Translations under genes and position numbers: made by a program
Shown: positions 4,855-43,145 of the stretch, piece after piece
Layout of the letters: the number at the start of each line of letters is the position of its first letter
How positions within the stretch are numbered: the stretch's first letter is position 1
NCBI GenBank assembly: GCA_039715015.1
Contig: JBDLIE010000020.1
Location: 1-44,096 of the forward strand
Direction of reading: 5' to 3'
Origin: Thermodesulfobacteriota bacterium
GTDB taxonomy: Bacteria > Desulfobacterota > Desulfobulbia > Desulfobulbales > SURF-16
DNA length: 44,096 nt
The notes under the pieces: generated by a model
The model's database searches: none
The model's input: only the letters and a program-made list of their open reading frames with translations
What the model was told of the DNA's origin: nothing

Positions 4855-7182
4855 ATGAGACGTTTTGAGGCGTGGTTTGGGCTTTTTGTAGTGCGACGGC
4901 GGTGGTGGATCCTCACCCTGACCCTTCTTGTTGCCAGCTGGTGCGCCAGCGGCATGGCCAATCTGCAGTTTGTCAATAACTCCCGCATGTTCTTTTCCAA
5001 GGAGAACCCACAGCTCCAGGCCCTGGAGATGTTGGAGAACACCTATACAAAATATGAAAATGTCCTCTTTGTGGTGGAGCCTGCCTCGGGCAATGTCTTT
5101 GAGCGTTTGACCTTAAGCGCCATTGAGGAGCTCACGACTGAGGCCTGGAAAATTCCCTACTCAAGCAAGGTTAGCTCCCTGACAAATTTTCAGCATACCC
5201 GTGCCGAGGGTGACGAGCTCATTGTTGAAGATTTGGTCCGTGACGCCGGCCGGCTGAGTGATACGGATCTGGCCGTCATCAAGGAAATTGCCCTTGCTGA
5301 ACCGCTACTGGTTAACAGCCTTGTCTCTCAGGGAGCCCATGTCAGCGGCGTAAATGTTAATATCATAAAGCCTGAAAAGGACATGAATGAGTCGCTCCAG
5401 GTTGCTACGCAGGCCCGGCAGTTAGCCCGGGAGATAGAAGCTAAATATCCAGGCATTAGCCTCCATATCACTGGCGGCATCATGGTGGATGATGCCTTTG
5501 GCGAGGCCCCAAAGCGGGACATGACCAGCCTGATGCCCCTGGTCCTCTTAATTTTTTTCGTGGCCATGGTCGCCTCCCTGCGGTCGCTGCTGGCAACGCT
5601 CTCCACCTTCTGTGTGGTGTTCATGTCTGTTTTTACCGGCATGGGTTTGGCCGGGTGGTTGGGCATCGATATCACCCCGGCGTCGGCCAACGGCCCCATT
5701 ATTATCCTGACCCTGGCTGTGGCTGATTCCATCCATGTCCTGGTGACCATGTTCCACCAGGTTCGGCTGGGAAGGAGTCGCAAAGAAGCGGTTGCCGAGT
5801 CGCTGCGTATTAACCTGCAGCCTGTTTTTGTGACCTCGCTCACCACGACCATCGGCTTTCTGACCATGAATTTTTCCGATGCCCCCCCCTTCCGTGATCT
5901 GGGTAACATTGTGGCCATGGGGGTGACGGCAGCCTTTTTTTACTCAGTCTTGTTCTTGCCCGCCTTGGTCGCTATTTTGCCCATCAAGGTTGGCACGGGG
6001 CAAGAGCGGCAATCCCCCTTTTTTGAGAAGCTGGGGCGTTTTGTGGTTGCCAGAAGGACGCCCCTTTTCAGGTGGTTATTGCTCTTTATGGCCTTGATGG
6101 CTACCGGCATCAGCCGCATAGATCTGGATGACGATTTTGTCCGCTATTTTGATCACAGCTATGAATTTCGTCAGGCCTCCGAGTTTGCCATCGCCAACCT
6201 TACCGGTGTCTATATTATTGATTATAGCCTGGCCTCAGGGGAGGAGGGTGGTATCAACAACCCTGAGTATCTCCAAAAGGTGGATGAGTTTGCCAAGTGG
6301 TTTCGTGGCCAGGAGGGGGTGCGCCATATCTTTTCCATTACTGATATCATGAAACGGTTGAATCGCTCCATGCACGGTGATGATCAGCAATGGTACCGCT
6401 TGCCCGACCAGCGTAACCTTGCCGCCCAATATCTTCTGCTTTACGAGATGAGCCTGCCCTTTGGCCTTGACCTAAATGATCGGATTAATGTCGATAAGTC
6501 TGCCACCAGATTAACCGTTACCCTTGGCGACAGTACTACCCGGGAAGTCCGTGAGCTTGAAGAGAGGGGAAGACATTGGTTGGAGGAAAATGCTCCAGCA
6601 ACCATGCATACTTATGGTTCTGGACTTTCCGTTATCTTTTCTTATATCTCCAAGCGTAATATTCAATCAATGCTGGGTGCTTCGGTGATGGCCCTTTTGG
6701 TCATTTCCTTTATTCTGGCCATTGTCTTGCGTAGCTTTAAGCTTGGCCTGATCAGCCTGTTGCCCAACCTGTCTCCTGCCTTCATGGCCTTTGGTCTTTG
6801 GGGCTATACCGTGAGTCAGGTGGGCCTGGCTGTCTCGGTGATGATTGCCATGACCATGGGTATTGTGGTGGATGATACGGTTCATTTCCTCTCCAAATAC
6901 CAAAGGGCCCGCAAGGAGCACCGGGATTCTGCAGAGGAGGCGGTGGTCTATGCCTTTAGGACAGTTGGATCGCCAATTCTGGTTACCACTCTTATTCTGG
7001 TTGCTGGCTTTTGGGTCCTTTCCTTTTCCGGTTTTCAGATCAATGCCAATATGGGCTCCATGACTGCCATCACCATTATTTTTGCCCTGCTCATGGATTT
7101 CTTTTTTCTTCCAGCCTTGCTGGTTAAAATTGAGGGCAAAACAAAGGCAGGAGATCTGGTTGATAGCTCAACAAGGACATGA
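4855..7182 (+). CDS. MMPL/RND-family transporter
   Basis: 775 aa with two-fold (TM + periplasmic + 5 TM) repeat; TLAVADSIH, PVFVTSLTTTIGF, GIVVDDTVHF motifs. Confidence 0.92.
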   Translation: MRRFEAWFGLFVVRRRWWILTLTLLVASWCASGMANLQFVNNSRMFFSKENPQLQALEMLENTYTKYENVLFVVEPASGNVFERLTLSAIEELTTEAWKIPYSSKVSSLTNFQHTRAEGDELIVEDLVRDAGRLSDTDLAVIKEIALAEPLLVNSLVSQGAHVSGVNVNIIKPEKDMNESLQVATQARQLAREIEAKYPGISLHITGGIMVDDAFGEAPKRDMTSLMPLVLLIFFVAMVASLRSLLATLSTFCVVFMSVFTGMGLAGWLGIDITPASANGPIIILTLAVADSIHVLVTMFHQVRLGRSRKEAVAESLRINLQPVFVTSLTTTIGFLTMNFSDAPPFRDLGNIVAMGVTAAFFYSVLFLPALVAILPIKVGTGQERQSPFFEKLGRFVVARRTPLFRWLLLFMALMATGISRIDLDDDFVRYFDHSYEFRQASEFAIANLTGVYIIDYSLASGEEGGINNPEYLQKVDEFAKWFRGQEGVRHIFSITDIMKRLNRSMHGDDQQWYRLPDQRNLAAQYLLLYEMSLPFGLDLNDRINVDKSATRLTVTLGDSTTREVRELEERGRHWLEENAPATMHTYGSGLSVIFSYISKRNIQSMLGASVMALLVISFILAIVLRSFKLGLISLLPNLSPAFMAFGLWGYTVSQVGLAVSVMIAMTMGIVVDDTVHFLSKYQRARKEHRDSAEEAVVYAFRTVGSPILVTTLILVAGFWVLSFSGFQINANMGSMTAITIIFALLMDFFFLPALLVKIEGKTKAGDLVDSSTRT

Positions 7183-7196
7183 AAACAGGAGACATA

Positions 7197-7985
7197 ATGA
7201 GAACTTTATCCATACTTTTTTTACTTCTTTCTTTTGCATTACCAGCCGGTGCTTTGGCGCAAAGCCCTGAGGAGCAGGGGCTGGCGATTGCCCAGGAGGC
7301 TGACGCCAGAGACAACGGTTTTGCTGACTTTACAGCCGACATGGAGATGGTTCTTCGCAATAGGCATGGCCAGGAAAGCCGCCGGAAGATACGTATCCGT
7401 ACCCTGGAGGTGGAGGGCGATGGCGATAAGAGCCTGACCATTTTCGACTCGCCTCGCGATGTCAAGGGGACGGCCTTGCTTACCTTCACCCATAAGGTGG
7501 GGGACGATGATCAATGGCTTTATTTGCCTGCCCTTAAGAGAGTCAAACGTATTGCCTCACGCAATAAATCAGGCTCATTTATGGGCAGCGAATTTGCCTA
7601 TGAAGATATCGCCAGCCAGGAGGTTGAAAAATACACCTATAAATACCTGGGTGACGCCATCTATGACGGCCACGATTGTACCATGGTTGAAAGCTACCCG
7701 GTTGATGCCGCCAACTCCGGTTACACCCGCATGGTGTCCTGGCGGGACAAGGATGAGTATCGCCTCTGGAAGGTTGAGTATTATGACCGCAAATCAAGCC
7801 ATCTGAAGACTTTGACCATGGCTGGCTATCAGCGCTATCTTGATCGTTTTTGGCGTCCCCACCGCATGCATATGGTTAACCATCAAAACGGTAAGTCCAC
7901 CGAGTTGCACTGGGATAGTTTTCAATACCGCACCGGCCTCACCGATACTGACTTTAATAAAAACAGCCTGAAGCGGGTGAAATAA
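7197..7985 (+). CDS. Outer membrane lipoprotein-sorting (LolA-like) protein
   Basis: Signal peptide; FDSPRDVKGTALL, DDQWLYLPALKRVKRIAS, SFMGSEFAYED. AGGAGA before ATG 7197. Confidence 0.9.
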   Translation: MRTLSILFLLLSFALPAGALAQSPEEQGLAIAQEADARDNGFADFTADMEMVLRNRHGQESRRKIRIRTLEVEGDGDKSLTIFDSPRDVKGTALLTFTHKVGDDDQWLYLPALKRVKRIASRNKSGSFMGSEFAYEDIASQEVEKYTYKYLGDAIYDGHDCTMVESYPVDAANSGYTRMVSWRDKDEYRLWKVEYYDRKSSHLKTLTMAGYQRYLDRFWRPHRMHMVNHQNGKSTELHWDSFQYRTGLTDTDFNKNSLKRVK

Positions 7986-7988
7986 ACT

Positions 7989-9203
7989 ATGGCTGGCCTG
8001 AGAAAATTTGTACTGCTCTCTCTTGTCAGCCTTTTAGCGGCGCCCCTGGCTTTGTTGCTGCCGGTTTCCTCTCTTTGCATGGAGTTAACCGGTTCTGTTG
8101 ACCTTGAGGGCCGTTTTTTCTTGCAGAGCCCTCAGTTTCCTGATCAGCGCTCCCAAAGTGCTTCCTTTGCCCTCAATGCCGAGCTCTACCATGAGTTTGT
8201 CAGCGGCTCCAGCCTGATCCTTTCCCCCTTTGCCCGTCTGGACAGTGCTGATAAGGAAAGGAGCCATGCTGATCTGCGTGAACTTAATTATCTTCATGTC
8301 AGGGATGACTGGGAGCTGCGCCTCGGTTTAGGGAAGGTGTTCTGGGGGGCCTGTGAGTTTGTTCACCTGGTGGATATTATCAACCAGACGGATTTGGTTG
8401 AGTCCTTGGATGGAGAGGAAAAGCTGGGGCAGCCTATGCTCCATTTTTCTTTTGTTCGCGGTTGGGGCGTTTTGGATCTCTTTTTGCTCCCCTACTTTCG
8501 TGAGAGAACCTTCCAGGGCGAAAAGGGTCGTTTGCGTTTCCCCTTGATTGTAGATACAGACCACCCTTTGTATGAGAGCGGCAGTGAAGAACTTCACCAG
8601 GATGTATCACTTCGTTATAGTCATAGTCTGGGCGCTGTTGATTTCGGCCTTTCCTATTTCCGTGGGACCTCACGGGAACCCTTCCTGATTGCTGGACTGA
8701 ATTATAAGGATGAGCCTATTCTTACTCCCTATTATGAGCAGATAAGCCAGACTTCCCTCGACCTGCAGGGGGTCTATGGTTCCTGGCTGATCAAGGCCGA
8801 GGCCTTCTATCGAAGAGGTTATGGGCGGCCATTTGCTGCCGCCACCTTTGGCTTTGAATACACCCTCGTCGGTGTTTTTGAAACGGATCTTGATCTCGGT
8901 ATTATAGGCGAATACGTTTTTGACGACCGTGAGAAGGTAAGGCAAGGTCTTTTTAATAACGATCTCATGGGAGGCCTTCGCTTGGCCTTTAACGATGCAG
9001 CCTCCAGTGAGATCCTTATCGGCATTGTCCAGGATGTTGAGCAGAGCTCCCGGTTGCTTACCTTGGAGGCGGGGCGTCGGTTCAGCGACTTTTTACGCCT
9101 CAACCTGGAAGGCACCTGTTTTATGGATGGAGCGAAAGAGAGCGTTGACAACTCCCTGCGTGATGATGATTTTCTTAAGCTGGAGCTGATCTATTATTTT
9201 TAG
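7989..9203 (+). CDS. Putative outer membrane beta-barrel protein
   Basis: Signal peptide, amphipathic strands, VFWG..E..HLVDIINQTD motif seen in barrels of MMPL/LolA-like operons, C-terminal LELIYYF. Confidence 0.8.
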   Translation: MAGLRKFVLLSLVSLLAAPLALLLPVSSLCMELTGSVDLEGRFFLQSPQFPDQRSQSASFALNAELYHEFVSGSSLILSPFARLDSADKERSHADLRELNYLHVRDDWELRLGLGKVFWGACEFVHLVDIINQTDLVESLDGEEKLGQPMLHFSFVRGWGVLDLFLLPYFRERTFQGEKGRLRFPLIVDTDHPLYESGSEELHQDVSLRYSHSLGAVDFGLSYFRGTSREPFLIAGLNYKDEPILTPYYEQISQTSLDLQGVYGSWLIKAEAFYRRGYGRPFAAATFGFEYTLVGVFETDLDLGIIGEYVFDDREKVRQGLFNNDLMGGLRLAFNDAASSEILIGIVQDVEQSSRLLTLEAGRRFSDFLRLNLEGTCFMDGAKESVDNSLRDDDFLKLELIYYF

Positions 9204-9230
9204 GGGAGAGGCCGAAGGGGAGGCTTAGTT

Positions 9231-9707
9231 ATGGTACGCCGCATTCGCTGTCTTCATTTCATACTTTTGGTTTTTCTGTGCTTTTTTCTCATTTCTTGCC
9301 TGCCTAAAACCGGCCATATTTCCTTAGATTTCGATGATGACGTAGAGGTTGACCTGACCCGCGGCAAACTGCAACCCGGATTTATCTATTATTACAGTGG
9401 CCCGGAGGCAGAGCCTCACACCATTATTGCTATTGATGATGACGTTCCCTTTCAGCAAAATTTCTGGCAACCGGCTCAATTTGGTAAGATACAGGTGGAA
9501 GAATGGCTTGAGGCCATTGATAATCGTCATCGGCCAATAACCGATATGTATTCCGGGGGTAGGCTTCTGGATAGGAAAGGCAATTTCTTAGGGATATGGT
9601 TCTCCAGATATAATTTTTTCGCTGGCTATATTGATAGTGAGGGTAAGCTTGTCATCAAACGACCTCATCGCCGTAACAACAGATTACGGTTCAGGCAAAG
9701 CAAATAG
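9231..9707 (+). CDS. Hypothetical lipoprotein
   Basis: Hydrophobic signal with lipobox LISC; GGAGG upstream. Confidence 0.7.
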   Translation: MVRRIRCLHFILLVFLCFFLISCLPKTGHISLDFDDDVEVDLTRGKLQPGFIYYYSGPEAEPHTIIAIDDDVPFQQNFWQPAQFGKIQVEEWLEAIDNRHRPITDMYSGGRLLDRKGNFLGIWFSRYNFFAGYIDSEGKLVIKRPHRRNNRLRFRQSK

Positions 9708-9792
9708 TAACTATTACCAAATAACTCTTTACATGGTAACTCCGGGTGGTATTATGGTGCCAACAAGAAAATGATTCCCCCAGGAGGTAATT

Positions 9793-10236
9793 ATGTGTGT
9801 TGAAGTGAAGAGAACCTGTCAATGCGGCTCAAAAGAGGCCTCTTTCCATATGCGTGACCATATCATGGCCCCTGAAGTTGTTGACCGTATATACTGCCCT
9901 GAATGCTCATCCACTGTCAGCAAGGACAAGGAAACCATGCTTGCCGACAATGGCTGGCTCATTGAGTATGATATGGACATGGCTCGGATGTTTGCCATTA
10001 CTAAACTGAAGATGGACCCGGCCAGGGTTAATCCGGAGTTTGTCTTTGATGGGGGCTATGCCACCTGGAAGGAAATGTACCCTGGAGAGACAGAGGAGAT
10101 TGCTGATGAGCGTTGGCAGATCATCTCCAGGAAGAGTGAAGACCCTACGCGCTATCTTCGCGAAATTAATGAGTGGGCTGTGAATCGTATTCAGCGCCTT
10201 AAAAAAATTGGCTGGCGCAAGGCGCACTTGGCCTGA
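9793..10236 (+). CDS. Hypothetical protein with CxC and CxxC motifs
   Basis: AGGAGG RBS, MCVEVKRTCQCG...YCPECS, followed by a terminator. Confidence 0.8.
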   Translation: MCVEVKRTCQCGSKEASFHMRDHIMAPEVVDRIYCPECSSTVSKDKETMLADNGWLIEYDMDMARMFAITKLKMDPARVNPEFVFDGGYATWKEMYPGETEEIADERWQIISRKSEDPTRYLREINEWAVNRIQRLKKIGWRKAHLA

Positions 10237-10429: not shown

Positions 10430-10798
10430 TTATTTGGTTTCTATTCTATTGGATCGTCTCTGCCATAGCCGCCAGCCCCAGAGAAACAAGCCAGCGCCGA
10501 TGACGTCGGCAATTATATCGGCAAAGCTGGAATAACGACCGGAGATGAAGGATTGATGAAACTCATCGCTGATTCCGTAGAGCAGGCAAAAAAGGAGAAT
10601 ACTCCACAGTGGAGCAGCACCTCGCCTGGTGATCTGGGGCAACCAGGCCCAGAGAGCTGCGGCGGCCAGGGTCGCATAGGCCAGGACATGGAGAACTTTA
10701 TCCATACCGATGTGTAGTTGTCGGGGCATCTCTTTTCCCGGGATGTGGGAAAAGAGGAAAATAATCACCATTATGCTGACAAGGGGCAAAAAGCGCAT
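10430..10798 (-). CDS. VanZ-family membrane protein
   Basis: DKVLHVLAYATL, YGISDEFHQSFISGRYSSFADIIADVIG. Confidence 0.9.
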   Translation of the reverse strand: MRFLPLVSIMVIIFLFSHIPGKEMPRQLHIGMDKVLHVLAYATLAAAALWAWLPQITRRGAAPLWSILLFCLLYGISDEFHQSFISGRYSSFADIIADVIGAGLFLWGWRLWQRRSNRIETK

Positions 10799-10801
10799 AC
10801 C

Positions 10802-11227
10802 TCAAAGCCCCTTGGTGATAGAGTCCGTGTCAGAGTTGTGTTGCAATTTGGCGGATCTTTTAAGAAGAATAATGACCCAGAACAGAATCACCACCATGAC
10901 GCCTATCATGTCGGCTTCAAGGTCAACCTTGTCTGGTCGCCGACCGGGAATAAAGGATTGATACCACTCTTCAAGACCACCGTAGGCTAGACAGATGAAA
11001 ATAGTGGCAGTGCTCGTCCGAAGAGGGAAACGGCGGGGAAGGTTACGGCCAAAGGCAAAGAGGTAACTGGCAGCCAAAATTCCGTAGGCTAATGCATGGG
11101 CATATTTGTCGACGCCGCCATGCAGAAAAGAAGGTTGGTATTTGCCGGGCAGCGAAGCGGCTGCAAAGATGGCCCCGGTTACCAGCAGAGCAGGAAGAAG
11201 GCGCAGCAGCTTTCGTGTCTCTGCCAT
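10802..11227 (-). CDS. VanZ-family membrane protein (second copy)
   Basis: DKYAHALAYGIL, YGGLEEWYQSFIPGRRPDKVDLEADMIG. ATG 11227 chosen to avoid overlap with the upstream gene. Confidence 0.88.
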   Translation of the reverse strand: MAETRKLLRLLPALLVTGAIFAAASLPGKYQPSFLHGGVDKYAHALAYGILAASYLFAFGRNLPRRFPLRTSTATIFICLAYGGLEEWYQSFIPGRRPDKVDLEADMIGVMVVILFWVIILLKRSAKLQHNSDTDSITKGL

Positions 11228-11231
11228 GACA

Positions 11232-11732
11232 TTAGCCCTCGTCGAGATGAATGGATGCCAATACTTCTTTGGGGAATTTTTTGCGGATCCGTTTGATTGC
11301 CGCAAAAATGGAATGGGTGGGAAGCTCGCTCAGTTTTGTTTCTGTCTTGTCCTTATAGGCGGTGACAAAGAATTGTTTTTTGCGAATGCTGAAACGGTGT
11401 GACCAGTTGACCTCGATGGTTTCAGGGCTTTCCTTGATTTCTACATCGATCTTTTCACCCTTTTTGGCAACCTTGAGGGCATCGGCATCGGTCATCTCAA
11501 GAAGCCAGCCATCTCCCTCCGCCGTTGAGACAAAGATGAAAACGCCCATGGTGTTTACTGAGGCCTGTTTGGCAACCGCCAACTCCTGGAGTTTTACCAC
11601 CTCGCCGTTCAGGGTAACCTGGGCGGCTTTCTCCTGACTCTTTGGCTGGAATTTACCAATATCATTGCAGCATTTCTTGAACTTCTTGCCACTCCCGCAG
11701 GGACAGGGGTCGTTTCTTCCTATTTTCATCAT
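11232..11732 (-). CDS. SEC-C metal-binding motif protein
   Basis: N-terminal [20 protein letters not shown] followed by an uncharacterised domain. Confidence 0.88.
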
Positions 11733-11979
11733 ATATATCTTTGGAGGATTTTTAGTTTTCGTTTTTGAAAACAGCTAGGCCATCATGTCTCGCTAAAAGC
11801 AGTCTCCTTTCAGACTCCATGATATTCACAAAGGTAGATGGGTACTAAACCATCTCGCCTTATCCCTTGTCAATCCAGATATTTTTAAAATAGTAAGAGC
11901 CTGAAAGCACTAAGTGCCACAGGTGACAAGGCACTGCTGCCTGGGCACGAGACTCTTTGCCAATCTGGCCATTAATTTT

Positions 11980-12242
11980 GGTTCATCACGGATTACAGTG
12001 GGCGTCCTGTACCCTGTATTGCCTTTCTTTCTCTGGACATTGCTTCGTTCATTTTCGCCGCTCCGCTGCTGCTTGCCCAGCCAGTGAAACGGGCGAAAAC
12101 GAACCAAAAAGGGCACCCCTAACAGTCCTGGCCTTCGGCAGCACTCGCCTTGCCCAGCTCCCTGCTCGCTCAGGCCTGAATGGGGAAAGGCAAAATCAAA
12201 ACATCTAAAAAACAAAGGTTCCACTGCAATCCGTGATGAACC
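11980..12242. mobile_element. MITE-like non-autonomous element, 263 bp, ISL3-like ends
   Basis: 22-bp terminal inverted repeats with one mismatch: GGTTCATCACGGATTACAGTGG (11980-12001) and CCACTGCAATCCGTGATGAACC (12221-12242). T-rich flanks, internal hairpins, no credible ORF. Confidence 0.75.
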
Positions 12243-12271
12243 TTTTTTTATGGCAGGTGAATGCAAGTTTT

Positions 12272-13444
12272 TTAAATTTCTTCAGAAAGGGCCATGACCA
12301 TGGCACCCTTGGCTGTGGTGTTGAGTGGGTCATCGGCAATACGAACCTCTGAGATCTCAACCGGCAGGTCAGCCTTGCGCAGGCCTTTTTCAAACAGGTC
12401 CTGAAAGCCCTTGGGGAGAACGGTGCCGCCACTAAGAGCAATGGGCAGGGGGGTGTTGATATTGGGCATTTTATCCGTAGTCTTCAACTCGTGCTCAAGG
12501 CTGTTAAGCAGGTGGGAGACGAGGTCAACGTAGTAGATGTCCAAGGCGGTTTCCACACGATCCTGAGGGGTTCTGGCCAGGTTGAGGCTGCCCTCCTTGA
12601 TCATTTTGATACGGGTGGCAGGCTCGCCCACAGAGGCACCACCATGCTGTCGATATAATCACCACCCTTCTGGACGGAGAAGTTAAGAACAGGAACAGAG
12701 AGATAAGAGAGGCAGATGTTACACATGCCGCCACCCATGCTGATGCCGATGCCAGTGAAATTGTCGTTGGCAAGTTCACTCATGATGGTGGCCAGGCCCT
12801 CATTAATGGAAATGGGGCGGTAGCCCAGGGAGGCCAAGTACATCTTTAATGATAGACTCGTGATAAACCACCGAGGCATTACCGTCCACCGGCACGCCCG
12901 GCATGGAGAAACAGACCACCTCCTGCTTGTCGGTCTTCGCCAACAGAGAGCTGATGATAGATTGCAGGACGGTGATACCTTCATCCTCATGACTGGAGAG
13001 GATACCCTCTTCCATGGTCCGGCGGGTATTGGTGTTAAACATATTGGCAAAGTTTTCCGCCGAATAGCCCAGGATATAAAACTGATCGTCCTTGGCATAA
13101 AAGGTAATATCGTTTTCCATCAGAATTTTTTTAGTAAACTTGGAGTAAGGAATGGTGAAGAATGCATTAAGCTGGTTTACCGTATTGATGTGGCGCCCGG
13201 CATTCTGGGCCATGACAATATGGCTGGTGCCGATATCAAGGCCCACAGGACCGCTTGGTCTTTCAGCCATCTCACCAATCTCCTTGTCACGGGAAACCAC
13301 GGTTTTATGGGATGCCTCCATGGCAGTCTCAATATTTTCCAGATCTGCCAGGTCTCCAGCGTTGCCCCCGGAGGACTTGCTGCCCGCTTGAGGGGCGGCG
13401 TTTTGGCCTGGAAAGTTACCTCTGGATTTTTTTAGTTTAGCCAT
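12272..13444 (-). pseudogene. Divergent actin-superfamily ATPase (volactin-like), interrupted by two frameshifts (possibly sequencing errors)
   Basis: Joining ORFs 12803-13444, 12601-13098 and 12272-12631 gives 390 aa with all actin-fold motifs in order: GLDIGTSH, INEGLATIMSE, GISMGGGMCNI, KGGDYID, LSGGTVLPKGF, DPLNTTAKGA. Confidence 0.85.
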
Positions 13445-13652
13445 TTCTCACCTGCTTCATTTTCTTAATGAATATTTAAAAAAAAGATCGTCTCGATTCC
13501 CGTTTTCTATTTGAACATAAAAATGGTACATTCAGCCTCCATTTTTATGGGGAATTGAGAATAAAAAACAACGTAAGCAAAGGGTTACGCAGCACCAGAA
13601 AGCATTATGGCCAGAAAACCGCTTTATTTCCAAATATTTTGACATATTTATC

Positions 13653-16600
13653 GTGAATGGGCAGATAAAAAAAATAAAGTATCCCGAGAACTTACCTATC
13701 GTTGCTGAAAGGCAGGCCATCATCGCCGCCATAAAAAAGCATCAGGTGGTGATAATTGCCGGTGATACAGGGTCAGGGAAAACCACCCAGCTTCCGAAGA
13801 TGTGTCTGGATGCGGGCCGTGGTGTGGAACAGAAAATTGGCTGTACCCAGCCCCGCCGTATAGCTGCTACTTCCATTGCTGCCCGGGTTGCCGAGGAGCT
13901 TGGCGAGTCCGGATCTGTGGTGGGATATAAGATCCGCTTCCGCAACCAGACAAGCGCGGCCACCCGCATTAAATTTATGACCGACGGTATTCTCCTGGCC
14001 GAAGCCCAAGGGGATAAACGTCTCTCTGCTTATGACACCATCATCATTGATGAGGCCCATGAGCGCAGTCTTAATATTGATTTTCTTCTCGGCATTATGC
14101 AGCGCATCTTAAAACGCCGCCCTGACCTGAAGCTGATCATCACCTCTGCCACCATTGACACTGAAAAATTTGCCAAGGCCTTTGGTAATGCTCCTATTAT
14201 CGAAGTCACGGGCCGCACCTTTCCGGTGGAAATCAGATATCCAGAGAGAGAGGAAAATGGTGATGGCGGCGATTATGTCGAACAAGCAGTTCAGGCGGCC
14301 TTGGAACTCATGCGCCGGGACGGCCCTGGCGATATGCTGCTCTTCATGCCTACGGAACGTGACATTCGTGAAGCGGTTGCCCTCTTTGAAAGCCGTTTCG
14401 GCAAGCAAAAGGGACGGCAAACGCCCCTTGTTCTTCCCCTCTATGGACGCTTGGCAGGCCGCGACCAGAATCGTGTTTTTCAAGAGACAAATAGAGGCAA
14501 AATCGTTGTTGCCACCAATGTGGCGGAGACCTCCCTCACAGTGCCGGGCATCCGCTATGTTGTTGATACGGGCCTGGCAAGGATTTTAAGCTATAACGTC
14601 AGAGCCCGGACCAGTAAACTGCCCATTGCCAAAATTTCCAGGGCCAGCTGTGATCAGCGGGCCGGACGCTGTGGCCGGGTGGGGCCCGGTATCTGCCTGC
14701 GTCTCTTTGAAGAAAAGGACTACCTGAACCGCTCGGAATTCACCCGGCCGGAGATCCTCCGGTCTAATTTGGCGGAGGTTATTTTGCGGATGACCAGCCT
14801 TAACCTGGGGGAACCTGCCAGCTTTCCCTTTGTTGATCCACCCACTGGTCGGGCCATTGCCGATGGCTATCATCTTCTGACTGAGCTTGGTGCCCTTGAT
14901 AAAAAGAGGCGCTTGACCCGTTCTGGCCGCCTCATGGCCCGTCTGCCCCTTGATCCCAGAATTTCAAGGATGATTATTGAGGCCCGCCACCAAAATTGCG
15001 TACGGGAGATGGTCATTGTTGCCGCTGCCCTGTCCATCCAGGACCCCCGCATCCGTCCAAGTGACAGGGAGGCCGTTGCCGATGAGACTCATGCCAGATT
15101 TCAGTCAGAGACCTCCGATTTTGAGAGCCTCCTGAATCTTTGGAACCTCTTTACCAGCACCGCTGTTGCGGTGGGCAGCCTCTCCAGGCTGCGGAAATTT
15201 TGCAAGCAGAACTTCCTTTCCTTTCAGCGAATGCGTGAATGGCAGGACATCCATGAGCAGATACGCTCCATCCTTGCTGAAGAGGGCAGGGGTAAGCGTC
15301 ATGGTGCCCTGCGTTTTGTGGAAAACAGTGAGGAGGCAAGCTACGACCAGATTCATCGTGCTATTTTAAGTGGCAATCTACGCAATATCGGCCTCAAAAA
15401 GGCCAAGAATATCTATCAGGGCTGCCAGGACAAAGAACTCATGGTCTTCCCCGGTTCAGGTCAGTTTGGCAAAAACAGGAGCTGGATCATGGCTGGCGAG
15501 CTCATGGAAACATCTCGTCTTTTTGCCCGGATCGTTGCAGGAATAAAGCCTGAATGGATAGAGCCCCTGGCCGGTCACCTCTGCAAACGGGCCTACCTGG
15601 AACCCCATTGGGCAAAAAAACAGGGTATGGTGGTGGCCAAAGAACAGGTCTCCCTCTTTGGCCTTATTATTGTGGCGGGCCGCCGGCTCAACTATGGTAA
15701 AGTGGCGCCTGTTGAGGCGAGGGAGATTTTTATCCAGCATGCCTTGGTCGCAGGCGAGCTTGGCGGCAGCTTCCGTTTTCTGGCTGAAAACCGCAGGCTC
15801 ATAAAAAATATGGAGGAGGTGGAGCATCGTACCCGCCAGCGCGGTGTGCTGGTCGATGAGTTAGAGTTTTTTGATTTTTATGCTAAACGCCTGCCCCAGG
15901 ATGTCTTTGACCGTCAGGGCCTTGCCCGATGTGTCAAGAAAGGTGGGGGCGATGATTTCCTGCGGATGCGCGAGGCTGATATCGTCAAAGGCCAGCCGGA
16001 TGATAACCGTCTCGCTGATTTTCCTGAGTCCATCCATTGCGGTGAACTGACCTTTAAGCTCCGTTATTGTTTTGAGCCCGGCCAAAATGAGGATGGCATT
16101 GCCGTGGTCATCCCCAAGAACCTGGCCGCCCATAGCCGCCGGGAGCATTTTGAATGGCTGGTCCCCGGTCTTCTTCAGGAAAAAGTCACCTGCCTGTTAA
16201 AAAGTCTGCCCAAGTCAATCCGCCGTAATCTGGTACCCATACCCCATTCTGCTGAACGGTTGATGCCCTTGCTTGCCCCTTACCAAGGCAATCTTTTTCG
16301 CCAGCTCGAAGAGGCCATACTGAAGGTCTTCCAGCTCAGGGTGGAGCCTGGTATGTGGAGTACGGATAACCTGCCCCGTCATCTCTGTATGCGTTTTGAG
16401 CTGGTGGATGGTGAAGAGGTGGAATCTACGCGTGACCCAAAGGTGTTGGTGCAGAAAAAGATCGGACAAGATGATGATTGTCAGGGCCTTGTGGCCTTAC
16501 GGAAGCGATATGAGAGGGATGGTGTTCGAAGCTGGGATTTTGACGATCTGCCTGATCGTTTCCAGGTAAAAGATAACAAGGGTAACCTTACCGGTTTTGC

Positions 16601-17423
16601 CTATCCTGGCCTGCTGAGCCAGGGCAAGGCTGGCGTAGGTCTTCGCGTCTTTAGCGATATCATCAAGTGCCGGAGCAAAACACGAGAAGCGCTGCTGGTG
16701 CTCTACGGCCTCCAGTTTGTCAAAGGGCTAAAAAGTTTTGAAAAAGATTTTTCTCTGCCCCGTGCCCACTGGGCCCTCTATGAGGGGGTGGCCAGTCATG
16801 AGGAGATTAATAAGGACCTCTTTTCCTTCATATTGCGCGAGATCTTCTGTTGCCAGAACGGTCTTATCCCTGGGAAGGATGTTTTTACCTCCACCCTGGA
16901 GAATGTTAAAAAGGCCGGGCCTTATGTCCTTGGTAAGAAGGTCCTTGATCAGGTCGTCATCGTCCTTCAGGAGAGACGTGCCACTCTGGATTTTATCAGC
17001 GGCCTCGAAAATCAATGCCGCGGTAAAAAATATTTCGGCATAAGCGAGCAGGAATGCGCCATGTTCAGGGCTGAAGTGGCCCGTTATCTTCCTCCTGATT
17101 TTCTGGCCACCATGAATGCGGAGAAACTTCTCCAGGTGCCCCGTTATCTTAAGGGGCTGACCATCCGTCTGCAGCGTAAACTTCAGGATCCAGCTAAGGA
17201 TGCGGCCCGTCTCAAGGAAATAACACCCTTTGTCGATTGGCTTGCTGATGTTCGCAAAAGGGAAGGCCTGCCCCCTGAAGTGGAGGAGGAGTTCGACCAT
17301 TTTGCCACCATGATCGAGGAGCTGCGGATTTCCCTTTTTGCCCAGGAATTAAAAACACTCTTTCCCATCTCCAGCAAGCGCCTCAAGAAAAAACAGCAGG
17401 CCATAACAATACTGCTGCCCTAA
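13653..17423 (+). CDS. hrpA: ATP-dependent RNA helicase HrpA
   Basis: GDTGSGKTTQLPK, TQPRR, DEAH, SAT, TNVAETSLTVPG, QRAGRCGR, C-terminal EELRISLFAQELKT..PIS.KRL; 1256 aa. Confidence 0.96.
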   Translation: MNGQIKKIKYPENLPIVAERQAIIAAIKKHQVVIIAGDTGSGKTTQLPKMCLDAGRGVEQKIGCTQPRRIAATSIAARVAEELGESGSVVGYKIRFRNQTSAATRIKFMTDGILLAEAQGDKRLSAYDTIIIDEAHERSLNIDFLLGIMQRILKRRPDLKLIITSATIDTEKFAKAFGNAPIIEVTGRTFPVEIRYPEREENGDGGDYVEQAVQAALELMRRDGPGDMLLFMPTERDIREAVALFESRFGKQKGRQTPLVLPLYGRLAGRDQNRVFQETNRGKIVVATNVAETSLTVPGIRYVVDTGLARILSYNVRARTSKLPIAKISRASCDQRAGRCGRVGPGICLRLFEEKDYLNRSEFTRPEILRSNLAEVILRMTSLNLGEPASFPFVDPPTGRAIADGYHLLTELGALDKKRRLTRSGRLMARLPLDPRISRMIIEARHQNCVREMVIVAAALSIQDPRIRPSDREAVADETHARFQSETSDFESLLNLWNLFTSTAVAVGSLSRLRKFCKQNFLSFQRMREWQDIHEQIRSILAEEGRGKRHGALRFVENSEEASYDQIHRAILSGNLRNIGLKKAKNIYQGCQDKELMVFPGSGQFGKNRSWIMAGELMETSRLFARIVAGIKPEWIEPLAGHLCKRAYLEPHWAKKQGMVVAKEQVSLFGLIIVAGRRLNYGKVAPVEAREIFIQHALVAGELGGSFRFLAENRRLIKNMEEVEHRTRQRGVLVDELEFFDFYAKRLPQDVFDRQGLARCVKKGGGDDFLRMREADIVKGQPDDNRLADFPESIHCGELTFKLRYCFEPGQNEDGIAVVIPKNLAAHSRREHFEWLVPGLLQEKVTCLLKSLPKSIRRNLVPIPHSAERLMPLLAPYQGNLFRQLEEAILKVFQLRVEPGMWSTDNLPRHLCMRFELVDGEEVESTRDPKVLVQKKIGQDDDCQGLVALRKRYERDGVRSWDFDDLPDRFQVKDNKGNLTGFAYPGLLSQGKAGVGLRVFSDIIKCRSKTREALLVLYGLQFVKGLKSFEKDFSLPRAHWALYEGVASHEEINKDLFSFILREIFCCQNGLIPGKDVFTSTLENVKKAGPYVLGKKVLDQVVIVLQERRATLDFISGLENQCRGKKYFGISEQECAMFRAEVARYLPPDFLATMNAEKLLQVPRYLKGLTIRLQRKLQDPAKDAARLKEITPFVDWLADVRKREGLPPEVEEEFDHFATMIEELRISLFAQELKTLFPISSKRLKKKQQAITILLP

Positions 17424-41903: not shown

Positions 41904-42017
41904 GGATAAATCAATTTGGATTTGAAAACTTTCCAAGACTATACTTAACAAGCAGGCAATAATAATTTCTTTGTTTCTAAACCGGTAAATTCATTATTAA
42001 TGAACGGTAGGATGAAA

Positions 42018-43145
42018 ATGAACATTAAACGACTTCTCCTTATTTTAAGCCTCTTTGCCCTCATGCTCTCCCAAGGTTGCAAGGAAACTGACCAGTCCAT
42101 TCTGCGCTTCAATCATTACCAGCATGTTACGGGTATGAAGCTTGATTGCGATTCTTGCCATGGTCAAGCAAAAGGACGTTTTACACTTCCTGACCATCAA
42201 AACTGTTCTGAATGTCATTCTAAATTAATGAAAGCTGAGCAGGTCAGCAAAGATACCTGCGGCGTTTGCCACAAGGAACAGGACCTTGGACAGATTGGAG
42301 AAATGGCTCCGGCCAAGCGGGTAAGCCGCCAGGTCTTCTTTCACTCAGAGGCCTTGGGTAACTATTGTAATGACTGTCATGACGGCACGTTGCGTGAAGA
42401 TGCGGACGGGCGCTTAATGACACGGGATGATGTGATACGGACACGAGAACAATCACATGAAACAGGCCGGCCATGCAGTCAGTGTCATCTGAATATCACC
42501 CGCGAGTCCCTGCCGGCAAATCACCAGGTCAATTGGAAAAAAAGACATGGAGTCTTCGCGGCGGATGAAGAATTTACCTGTTCAGTCTGTCATGAGGAGA
42601 ATACCTGTAAAGAATGCCATATGTCTGAAGAGCCTGATTCGCATAATACCCTTTGGGTGAACCAGACCCACGGCATAGAGGGTTCCTGGAACAGGGCAAG
42701 CTGCCGGGTATGCCATCAGGATGATTTTTGCGCAGGATGCCATCGGGATACCAAGCCGCGCTCTCATACTTCAATGTGGATTGGCCAGCATGGCGCATTT
42801 GCCCCTGCCAGTTTTGCTTCATGCCAGGTATGCCATCCCAAAGAACAATGCCAGGCCTGCCACAGGACGGAAGAACCAGCCAGCCATGTTGGTAATTGGG
42901 AGGAAATTCATTGCCTAAATTGCCACATATCAGCACCCATTCAAATAGAGTGCAAGGTCTGCCATGTAGGTGGAGCAGCCGAACAACACCTGGCAGTGGC
43001 TCCACTTCCACCAGCATGGCACGCCTTGCCTGCTCAGGCCAATTGCCTAGACTTGGGCTGCCATAACCCAGCTGGCCCCCAACCGCTTGACCCGACCAAA
43101 CACACTCTCGACCAGAGCGTATGCCTTGTCTGTCACCCGTTTTAA
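42018..43145 (+). CDS. Multiheme c-type cytochrome lipoprotein (14 CxxCH plus 1 CX4CH)
   Basis: Lipobox SQGC; motifs CDSCH, CSECH, CGVCH, CNDCH, CSQCH, CSVCH, CKECH, CRVCH, CAGCH, CQVCH, CQACH, CLNCH, CKVCH, CLDLGCH, CLVCH. Alternative starts at 42000 and 42012. Confidence 0.93.
   Translation: MNIKRLLLILSLFALMLSQGCKETDQSILRFNHYQHVTGMKLDCDSCHGQAKGRFTLPDHQNCSECHSKLMKAEQVSKDTCGVCHKEQDLGQIGEMAPAKRVSRQVFFHSEALGNYCNDCHDGTLREDADGRLMTRDDVIRTREQSHETGRPCSQCHLNITRESLPANHQVNWKKRHGVFAADEEFTCSVCHEENTCKECHMSEEPDSHNTLWVNQTHGIEGSWNRASCRVCHQDDFCAGCHRDTKPRSHTSMWIGQHGAFAPASFASCQVCHPKEQCQACHRTEEPASHVGNWEEIHCLNCHISAPIQIECKVCHVGGAAEQHLAVAPLPPAWHALPAQANCLDLGCHNPAGPQPLDPTKHTLDQSVCLVCHPF

Follow-up and report, generated by a model that had tools for sequence, protein, structure and literature searches.

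A probable fresh pseudogene of a Mad28/volactin-family actin in a Desulfobulbales bacterium, and the co-occurrence of its intact relatives with a dedicated class A PBP

The window analysed here, a stretch of 44,096 nucleotides from a Desulfobulbales genome (G000 where it must be told from others), holds a gene for an actin of the Mad28/volactin family (PF25216) that is interrupted by two indels and has probably begun to decay. Its intact relatives are found, across the order, in exactly the same genomes as a divergent class A PBP and in nearly the same genomes as a pentapeptide protein. We favour, at a probability of about 0.52, a model in which a Mad28-type actin and the PBP form a module that curves the cell and that is decaying in this strain.

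An earlier note on this DNA had reconstructed an actin-fold gene of 390 codons, and the profile search bears this out: three pieces on the minus strand between 13444 and 12272 match PF25216 collinearly (103, 77 and 81 bits for A, B and C), in reading frames that run A-B-A, the ORF from 13444 ending at 12803 (Table 1). The indels were called against two correctly oriented same-genus relatives; with X placed at the breaks, the protein shares 92.6% identity with the intact orthologue of 391 aa at locus L002. The full actin motif set that had been claimed is there, since GLDIGT, NEG, GISMGGG, LSGGT and the final G are all present and near-invariant across 146 family members, and the volactin-like segments that had been quoted are likewise found in the sequence. 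The low-complexity N-terminal extension, put at some 60 residues, holds as to its length (about 66 residues) but not as to its character: in the model of an orthologue disorder is confined to residues 1-31, and a conserved helix (28-46) and a strand (49-54) follow. An amphipathic helix at the N-terminus is among the marks of Mad28; the hydrophobic moment of this one is low (0.03-0.35), and membrane binding through it is not supported.

Table 1. Features of the window around the actin gene (positions are those of the window)
Feature	Position	Strand	Remarks
MITE-like element, 287 bp, 34-nt imperfect terminal inverted repeats	11968..12254	none	arms 82% complementary
SEC-C motif protein gene	11232..11732	minus	lies behind the PBP gene in same-genus relatives; far boundary of the deletion
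Mad28/volactin-family (PF25216) actin gene	12272..13444	minus	390 codons, two indels; probably a pseudogene of recent date
Piece C, adenosine motif (LSGGT) and connect-2	12272..12637	minus	PF25216 positions 210-321, E 1.5e-22
G run, -1 base relative to relatives	12638..12642	minus	from the relatives' alignment; depth-62 contig of run X1
Piece B, connect-1 (NEG) and phosphate-2 (GISMGGG)	12643..12843	minus	PF25216 positions 139-203, E 2.9e-21
Premature TAA, then TGA, in frame A	12803..12805	minus	uncorrected product would be 213 aa
AAA run, +1 base relative to relatives	12845..12847	minus	from the relatives' alignment; same letters in the depth-62 contig of run X1
Piece A, codons 1-199	12848..13444	minus	N-terminal extension and phosphate-1; PF25216 positions 3-144, E 2.1e-29
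Shine-Dalgarno-like AGGTGA	13448..13453	minus	seen in the sequence, 3 nt before the ATG at 13444; role putative
HrpA-type RNA helicase gene, divergent neighbour	13653..17423	plus	in 50 of 77 loci; probably no more than a neighbour by position

On PF25216 ('Volactin' in Pfam; cut-off 35) the intact orthologue reaches 289.6 bits over positions 3-321, named Mad28 proteins score 264-277 bits and volactin itself 450 bits, and by this profile volactin and Mad28 are one family. The window protein is 56-59% identical to named Mad28 proteins (P0108, P0111 and P0116) and 40.6% identical to the volactin of Haloferax volcanii over 320 aligned residues. Three intact orthologues reached 27.5-35.4 bits on the MamK profile NF040964 (cut-off 400), gave no match at E<=1 to the BeeR profile NF053558 (cut-off 530), and passed none of the cut-offs of the MreB, FtsA, PilM and EutJ profiles, the best score being 16.4 bits on MreB_Mbl (cut-off 27) for one of the three; MreB was compared by profile and tree, and FtsA, PilM and EutJ by profile only. 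Two trees were built, a quick one of 104 rows with MamK and MreB as outgroups, in which the window protein is separate from MreB, and a careful one of 52 selected rows with no outgroup; both place it in a Desulfobulbales clade (100/99) inside a larger group with Mad28 proteins. A 42-row clade (100/99) joins the window protein with the named Mad28 proteins, to which its own subclade may be sister or within which it may be nested, and the volactins fall outside this Desulfobulbales/Mad28 group on a long branch. A single clade of the 16 Desulfobulbales and 9 volactin rows, a group defined from the quick tree and containing long branches, was rejected (p-AU 0.005). The earlier note had read the protein as a volactin/Mad28-type actin and not as MreB, FtsA/PilM or EutJ, and the grouping with those families that it named as contrary evidence is not what the profiles, and for MreB the tree, return. 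It had favoured volactin over Mad28; the two indeed belong to one PF25216 family, but the protein is nearer to Mad28 and the clade with volactins is rejected.

Mad28 is described, in the available part of PMC10653835, as carrying Ser, not Asp, in phosphate-2 and lacking EP in connect-1. The window protein carries the Mad28-type motifs S236, G238 and G240 (phosphate-2 SxGxG) and N215 and E216 (connect-1 xExx), and the phosphate-2 Ser is found in 144 of 146 aligned family members, volactins among them. Modelled from the 146-row alignment (pLDDT 86, pTM 0.84), the orthologue has an actin fold with MreB, MamK and BeeR as its best structural matches (TM 0.55-0.61, 17-19% identity); an earlier model from 15 sequences (pLDDT 48) was discarded. 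A sequence search against solved structures gave nothing at E<=1. Automatic annotation calls at least one protein of this type 'volactin' (P0250), and the relatives include Desulfurivibrionaceae, Desulfurivibrio and Hydrosulfovibrio. Two further actin-like genes were noted along the way: a PF25216 gene from another Desulfobacterota family (L190, G433:C27:7740-8702) that branches beside the volactins, at a point where long branches come together, and next to which there is neither a PBP nor a mad gene; and, in the genome of the window, a second, divergent MreB-like gene on a long branch (G000:C10:19410-20408, 333 aa), the canonical mreB being on C53.

The association with the PBP was followed in an order-wide profile of 251 genomes at least 90% complete, taken from a larger group. 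Intact PF25216 genes occur in 48 of them and the divergent class A PBP in exactly the same 48; 202 have neither, and the one remaining genome is that of the window, with its broken actin and no PBP. The C-terminal domain of the pentapeptide protein is present in 47 of the 48 carriers and in none of the 203 others. Among 61 related genomes 31 gave a DNA match to the gene, and the family search yielded 29 with an intact full-length copy and two, G000 and G058, with a broken one. The PBP is missing from both of the latter, and the sole PBP fragment found without an actin in this set comes from a genome that is 80% complete. Carriers and non-carriers are mixed in seven genera, in which both genes are lost together. 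The co-occurrence persists where the genes are apart, by 394 kb in the complete genome G055, and in G022 (L143) other genes stand beside the actin while the PBP is on another contig; at the actin loci the PBP is adjacent in 29 of 77 and the pentapeptide domain in 30 of 77. Many of the joint losses can be single deletions, since they frequently concern neighbouring genes, and related genomes do not count as independent cases. We consider a functional link between the actin and the PBP to be highly probable.

The PBP has PF00912 and PF00905 above cut-off, falls below the cut-off of the PBP1A profile TIGR02074, and is by these scores a divergent class A subfamily; the motifs ED, GGSTIIMQ, NKLEE, SSTIK, SVN and KTG are kept in three orthologues. 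It has a conserved cytoplasmic N-terminus of about 90 residues and an N-terminal membrane segment that was judged by eye, lying below the hydropathy threshold used. A prediction of the complex between the actin and this cytoplasmic tail scored 0.00; its controls were not folded, and it counts neither for nor against the model. Among 301 genomes of the phylum the dedicated PBP was found only within the order. PF25216 genes outside the order, in five genomes, have a PBP beside them in two only (G395 and G335), where actin, pseudo-receiver and class A PBP stand in a row; there is none beside the gene in G365, in G433 or at the weak match in G273. In two magnetotactic Nitrospirota, Ca. Magnetominusculus xianensis and Ca. 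Magnetobacterium casense, one actin paralogue of Mad28 type stands directly before a fusion of a pseudo-receiver with a class A PBP (L188:4935-7148 and L189:4421-6628). All the PBPs beside the actin outside the order are canonical class A enzymes, so the association of actin and PBP arose or persisted with different enzymes. A pseudo-receiver of the fusion type also stands alone behind cluster-associated mad28.

What such a module might do can be approached from two members of the family with experimental data. In the available portions of the cited work, Mad28 forms filaments (PMC10653835), polymerises, sits at the concave membrane, including that of curved E. coli, and needs its N-terminus for filaments (PMC12713370), and on its loss magnetosome chains shift off the concave face (bioRxiv 2025.02.24.639979); volactin forms dynamic, tip-anchored filaments that are needed for timely disk shape (PMC10869688, likewise in part). 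By analogy with Mad28, from whose experiments we infer both filament formation and a preference for curvature, the relatives' intact actin would likely polymerise with ATP at the inner membrane. The filament is predicted to steer the dedicated class A PBP, either directly or via the pentapeptide protein, the repeats of which would form a periplasmic beta-helix scaffold; extra peptidoglycan laid on one side would then make the cell curve. The full model has against it that the Mad28 of magnetosomes works without a dedicated PBP, an orthologue of which is found in none of the five magnetosome-type genomes examined. Because volactin works in cells without peptidoglycan and magnetosome Mad28 without a dedicated PBP, the PF25216 fold as such does not require a PBP.

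The named carriers in the cluster listings are Desulfurivibrio alkaliphilus, D. dismutans, Thiovibrio frasassiensis and Thiovibrio sp. JS02. The first two are small motile vibrios according to the accessible part of PMC12142623, and T. frasassiensis is vibrio-shaped according to that of bioRxiv 2022.10.27.514068; the shape data thus concern three carriers, all of them close kin. The actin clade is under purifying selection, and the orthologue is expressed in a cultured vibrio: in the D. dismutans proteome it (WP_275804328.1) ranks 333 and 247 of 1,864 detected proteins, with the MamK-family protein at ranks 83 and 100 and MreB at 103 and 112. The putative PBP and pentapeptide pair ranks at about 1745-1844, among the least abundant proteins detected; this divergent pair, annotated as transglycosylase-domain and pentapeptide proteins, was matched by size, annotation and arrangement, not by alignment. 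Accession numbers of D. alkaliphilus had no match in the portion of the PMC12545173 supplements that was covered.

Co-occurrence and synteny carry no geometry, and the same three-gene module could instead serve another local wall structure, such as a pole, the base of an appendage, a mineral-attachment site or a division-related zone. The low abundance of the putative PBP would fit a small local site, and Mad28 has also been located at division constrictions (PMC12713370, in part). We nevertheless regard such a role as unlikely, if a serious contender: the described carriers are vibrios, the account of D. dismutans, as far as it is available, records no appendages except flagella (PMC12142623), Mad28 prefers the concave face, and the module does not go with flagellin, which was found in 27 of 30 carriers and in 16 of 23 non-carriers. 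A link to motility was rejected. A link to bactofilin was not seen in the five genomes inspected, all five having bactofilin irrespective of the module.

It is improbable, in our view, that the co-occurrence of actin and PBP reflects linkage and shared ancestry with the actin acting independently of the PBP, for example in positioning granules, vesicles or DNA with an orphan MamK pair. The genes do frequently lie side by side, heterologous tests show an interaction of Mad28 with MamK (PMC10653835, in part), and MamK tracks the actin within the family of G000 (14 of 15 carriers, none of 13 non-carriers) and is also destroyed in G000 itself. Order-wide, however, MamK is a poor fit, being present in 28 of the 48 carriers and also in 28 non-carriers, and absent from Hydrosulfovibrio ferrireducens, against 48 of 48 for the PBP; the fit of the PBP includes genomes in which it lies far away; and different PBP subfamilies stand beside the actin in two other lineages.

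An operon of mamK-a, a membrane coiled-coil gene and mamK-b lies outside any magnetosome cluster in many Desulfobulbales. In G000 the N-terminal half of mamK-a is fused out of frame to the C-terminal half of mamK-b (G000:C40:10391-11405, L104), the remnant of such an operon (with a coiled-coil protein of about 165 aa) and with no mam neighbours. Overlapping contigs of run X1 cover the fusion point without differences, none of those listed bridging it by 31 bases on both sides, and a minor allele may exist. The operon is likely accessory in this family, and also destroyed in G000. Single MamK genes above the NCBIfam cut-off were found in 28 genomes without a PF25216 actin, for example G106, G129, G135, G141 and G159 (families f16 and f17, genus g35). 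Separately, the coiled-coil genes at the loci L082 and L087 are labelled mad23-27 here.

The window copy of the actin gene is, we judge, very probably a real and fresh pseudogene. A separately assembled contig of run X1, at depth 62, matches 12120-13700 throughout, without gaps or differences, and carries both indels; X1 is the one public run that holds this stretch and is possibly the source of the assembly, hence not independent. No RNA run is listed with the stretch. A tblastn comparison with same-genus proteins found a frame change in only 2 of 145 orthologous loci, the actin gene and one antisense shadow-frame artefact; of the 13 loci flagged in this baseline, the other 11 had stops with no frame change and were judged by eye to be antisense shadow frames or over-long N-termini. 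Over 345 codons the window copy has 6 private non-synonymous and 47 synonymous changes, a pattern similar to that of its sisters with no relaxed selection, and the break is therefore recent. Programmed frameshifting and a compensated double frameshift were both rejected, since the gene is uninterrupted in relatives and the two indels have a stop between them.

It is correspondingly doubtful, and indeed improbable, that both indels are errors of sequencing or assembly and that a functional protein is produced in this strain; what the family does is a separate matter. Each indel falls in a short homopolymer run, the two together restore the net frame, amino-acid change is not in excess, and run X1 may be the same data. 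Yet the separately assembled contig has both, other frame changes are almost absent from the genome, the partner genes and the mamK operon were removed by deletions and not by homopolymer slips, and G058, with its second broken actin gene, shows parallel decay. Because of the depth-62 contig, the near-absence of other frame changes and the deleted partner genes and mamK operon, the indels are probably real lesions; the earlier note was right that frameshifts hide the gene from gene callers, though they are probably more than a gene-calling nuisance. Its reading of the gene as an uncharacterised filament applies to the relatives, the window copy most likely being a fresh pseudogene.

The surroundings of the gene tell the same story of loss. 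As had been stated, a scan of 40 ORFs in the window revealed none of the genes mreCD, fts, par or mam, but the description of the gene as stand-alone has to be given up: in same-genus relatives the actin gene is followed by a convergent gene for a protein of 820-890 aa with a zinc ribbon, a membrane segment and pentapeptide repeats, and by a transglycosylase-transpeptidase gene of 920-980 aa. G000 has neither the PBP nor the pentapeptide partner gene, and the gene looks isolated because these partners are deleted here. Where relatives have about 5.5 kb with the two genes, the window has the MITE-like element, whose flanks map to opposite sides of the partner genes in L026 and L142. The element has 54 blastn matches on 30 contigs, many of them partial copies and several at contig ends. 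Farther out, two tandem VanZ-like membrane protein genes (10430-11305) come after the SEC-C gene, where the same-genus locus L142 has one; an operon of an MMPL/RND transporter, a LolA-like protein and three unannotated genes (4855-10236) is likely a lipid or outer-membrane export unit; and a multiheme cytochrome c with c7/MtrC-like matches beside a 472-aa unannotated gene (42000-43145) is a possible part of extracellular electron transfer.

The search of the genome for magnetosome genes that had been called for gave no cluster in G000: MamP and one Magnetobacterium cluster gene were not found, and its scores for MamB are at the level of ordinary CDF proteins, MamB reaching its cut-off in one of 61 genomes (G049) while G057 has a clear cluster. 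G000 has no magnetosome cluster. In G057 the cluster includes a divergent Mad28, which has 34% identity to the window protein, and another contig has a window-type gene, so the cluster Mad28 and the window-type actin are paralogues. In G066, which may be magnetotactic, a divergent paralogue closest to the cluster Mad28 of G057 lies at an hrpA-adjacent site (L191:2699-3907), with the ordinary copy at a contig end elsewhere. That the window gene is a genuine mad28, either a relic of a magnetotactic ancestor or at work in magnetosomes that have escaped recognition, is very unlikely and already largely refuted: the 56-59% identity to named Mad28, the MamK genes above cut-off in many carriers and the magnetotactic members of the order (G057, G049; PMC7449369, in part) are set against the MamB count of 1 in 61, the look of a cluster carrier in G057 and G049 only, the missing MamP and Magnetobacterium gene in G000, the separate location of the two types in G057, and a clade that is under purifying selection and expressed.

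In the literature, surveyed mostly through titles and the beginnings of abstracts and with subscription papers outside its reach, we found no description of the clade, of the kinship of volactin and Mad28, or of the link to the PBP, although supplementary trees of the Mad28 papers may include such homologues; Mad28 figures there as one of the magnetosome proteins found in deep-branching magnetotactic bacteria, and volactin as a protein behind the disk shape of an archaeon. What is new is a large Mad28-type clade, free of magnetosomes, whose actin is matched one to one with a class A peptidoglycan synthase, and in this order a mad28 or mamK match that passes the cut-off is no marker of magnetotaxis. 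Should the actin and the PBP be physically linked, this would connect an actin to the cell wall in a new way; it might explain how these sulfur-cycling vibrios come to be curved, and it would offer an origin, open to testing, for that part of the magnetoskeleton which follows curvature. Carriers are available in culture, and G000 and G058 represent natural losses. As a tentative and rather speculative extension, Mad28/volactin actins may be a third bacterial wall-patterning cytoskeleton beside MreB and FtsA, one that steers class A PBPs to bend the cell. The link to the PBP would then have been made at least twice with different PBPs, as a dedicated divergent enzyme with a pentapeptide scaffold in Desulfobulbales and as combinations of pseudo-receiver and PBP in Nitrospirota and a further family of Desulfobacterota. 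Shaping the cell would have been the original function, one that archaeal volactin has as well, and magnetotactic bacteria would have taken over Mad28 from it, perhaps together with MamK, in order to keep magnetosomes at the concave face.

Compared with known systems, the window-type actin is most like Mad28, with which it shares PF25216, 56-59% identity, the phosphate-2 Ser, the lack of EP in connect-1 and an N-terminal extension with a predicted helix. It differs in forming its own clade (100/99), in having no mam or mad neighbours and mostly a host without a magnetosome cluster, in having no pseudo-receiver or MinD-like gene behind it, and in co-occurring with two proteins absent from magnetosome-type genomes, the class A PBP and the pentapeptide protein. 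Volactin (HVO_2015; PMC10869688, in part) shares the family, 40.6% identity and a proposed role in cell shape, but has no N-terminal extension, sits on a long separate branch and belongs to an archaeal host without peptidoglycan. MamK and BeeR have the actin fold in common with it (TM 0.61 to each), and BeeR in addition a disordered N-terminal tail and non-magnetotactic hosts (PMC11929497, in part); identity in the structural match is, however, 18-19%, and the window-type orthologues lie below the cut-offs of both profiles. In the proposed function, a sub-membrane polymer that places peptidoglycan synthesis, the module would resemble the MreB Rod system and the pair of bactofilin and PbpC. MreB works with pairs of SEDS proteins and class B PBPs and with MreCD, and the host of the window-type actin keeps a separate mreB. 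The bactofilin of Caulobacter recruits the class A PBP PbpC via the cytoplasmic tail of the latter; bactofilins, however, are not actins and do not track the module.
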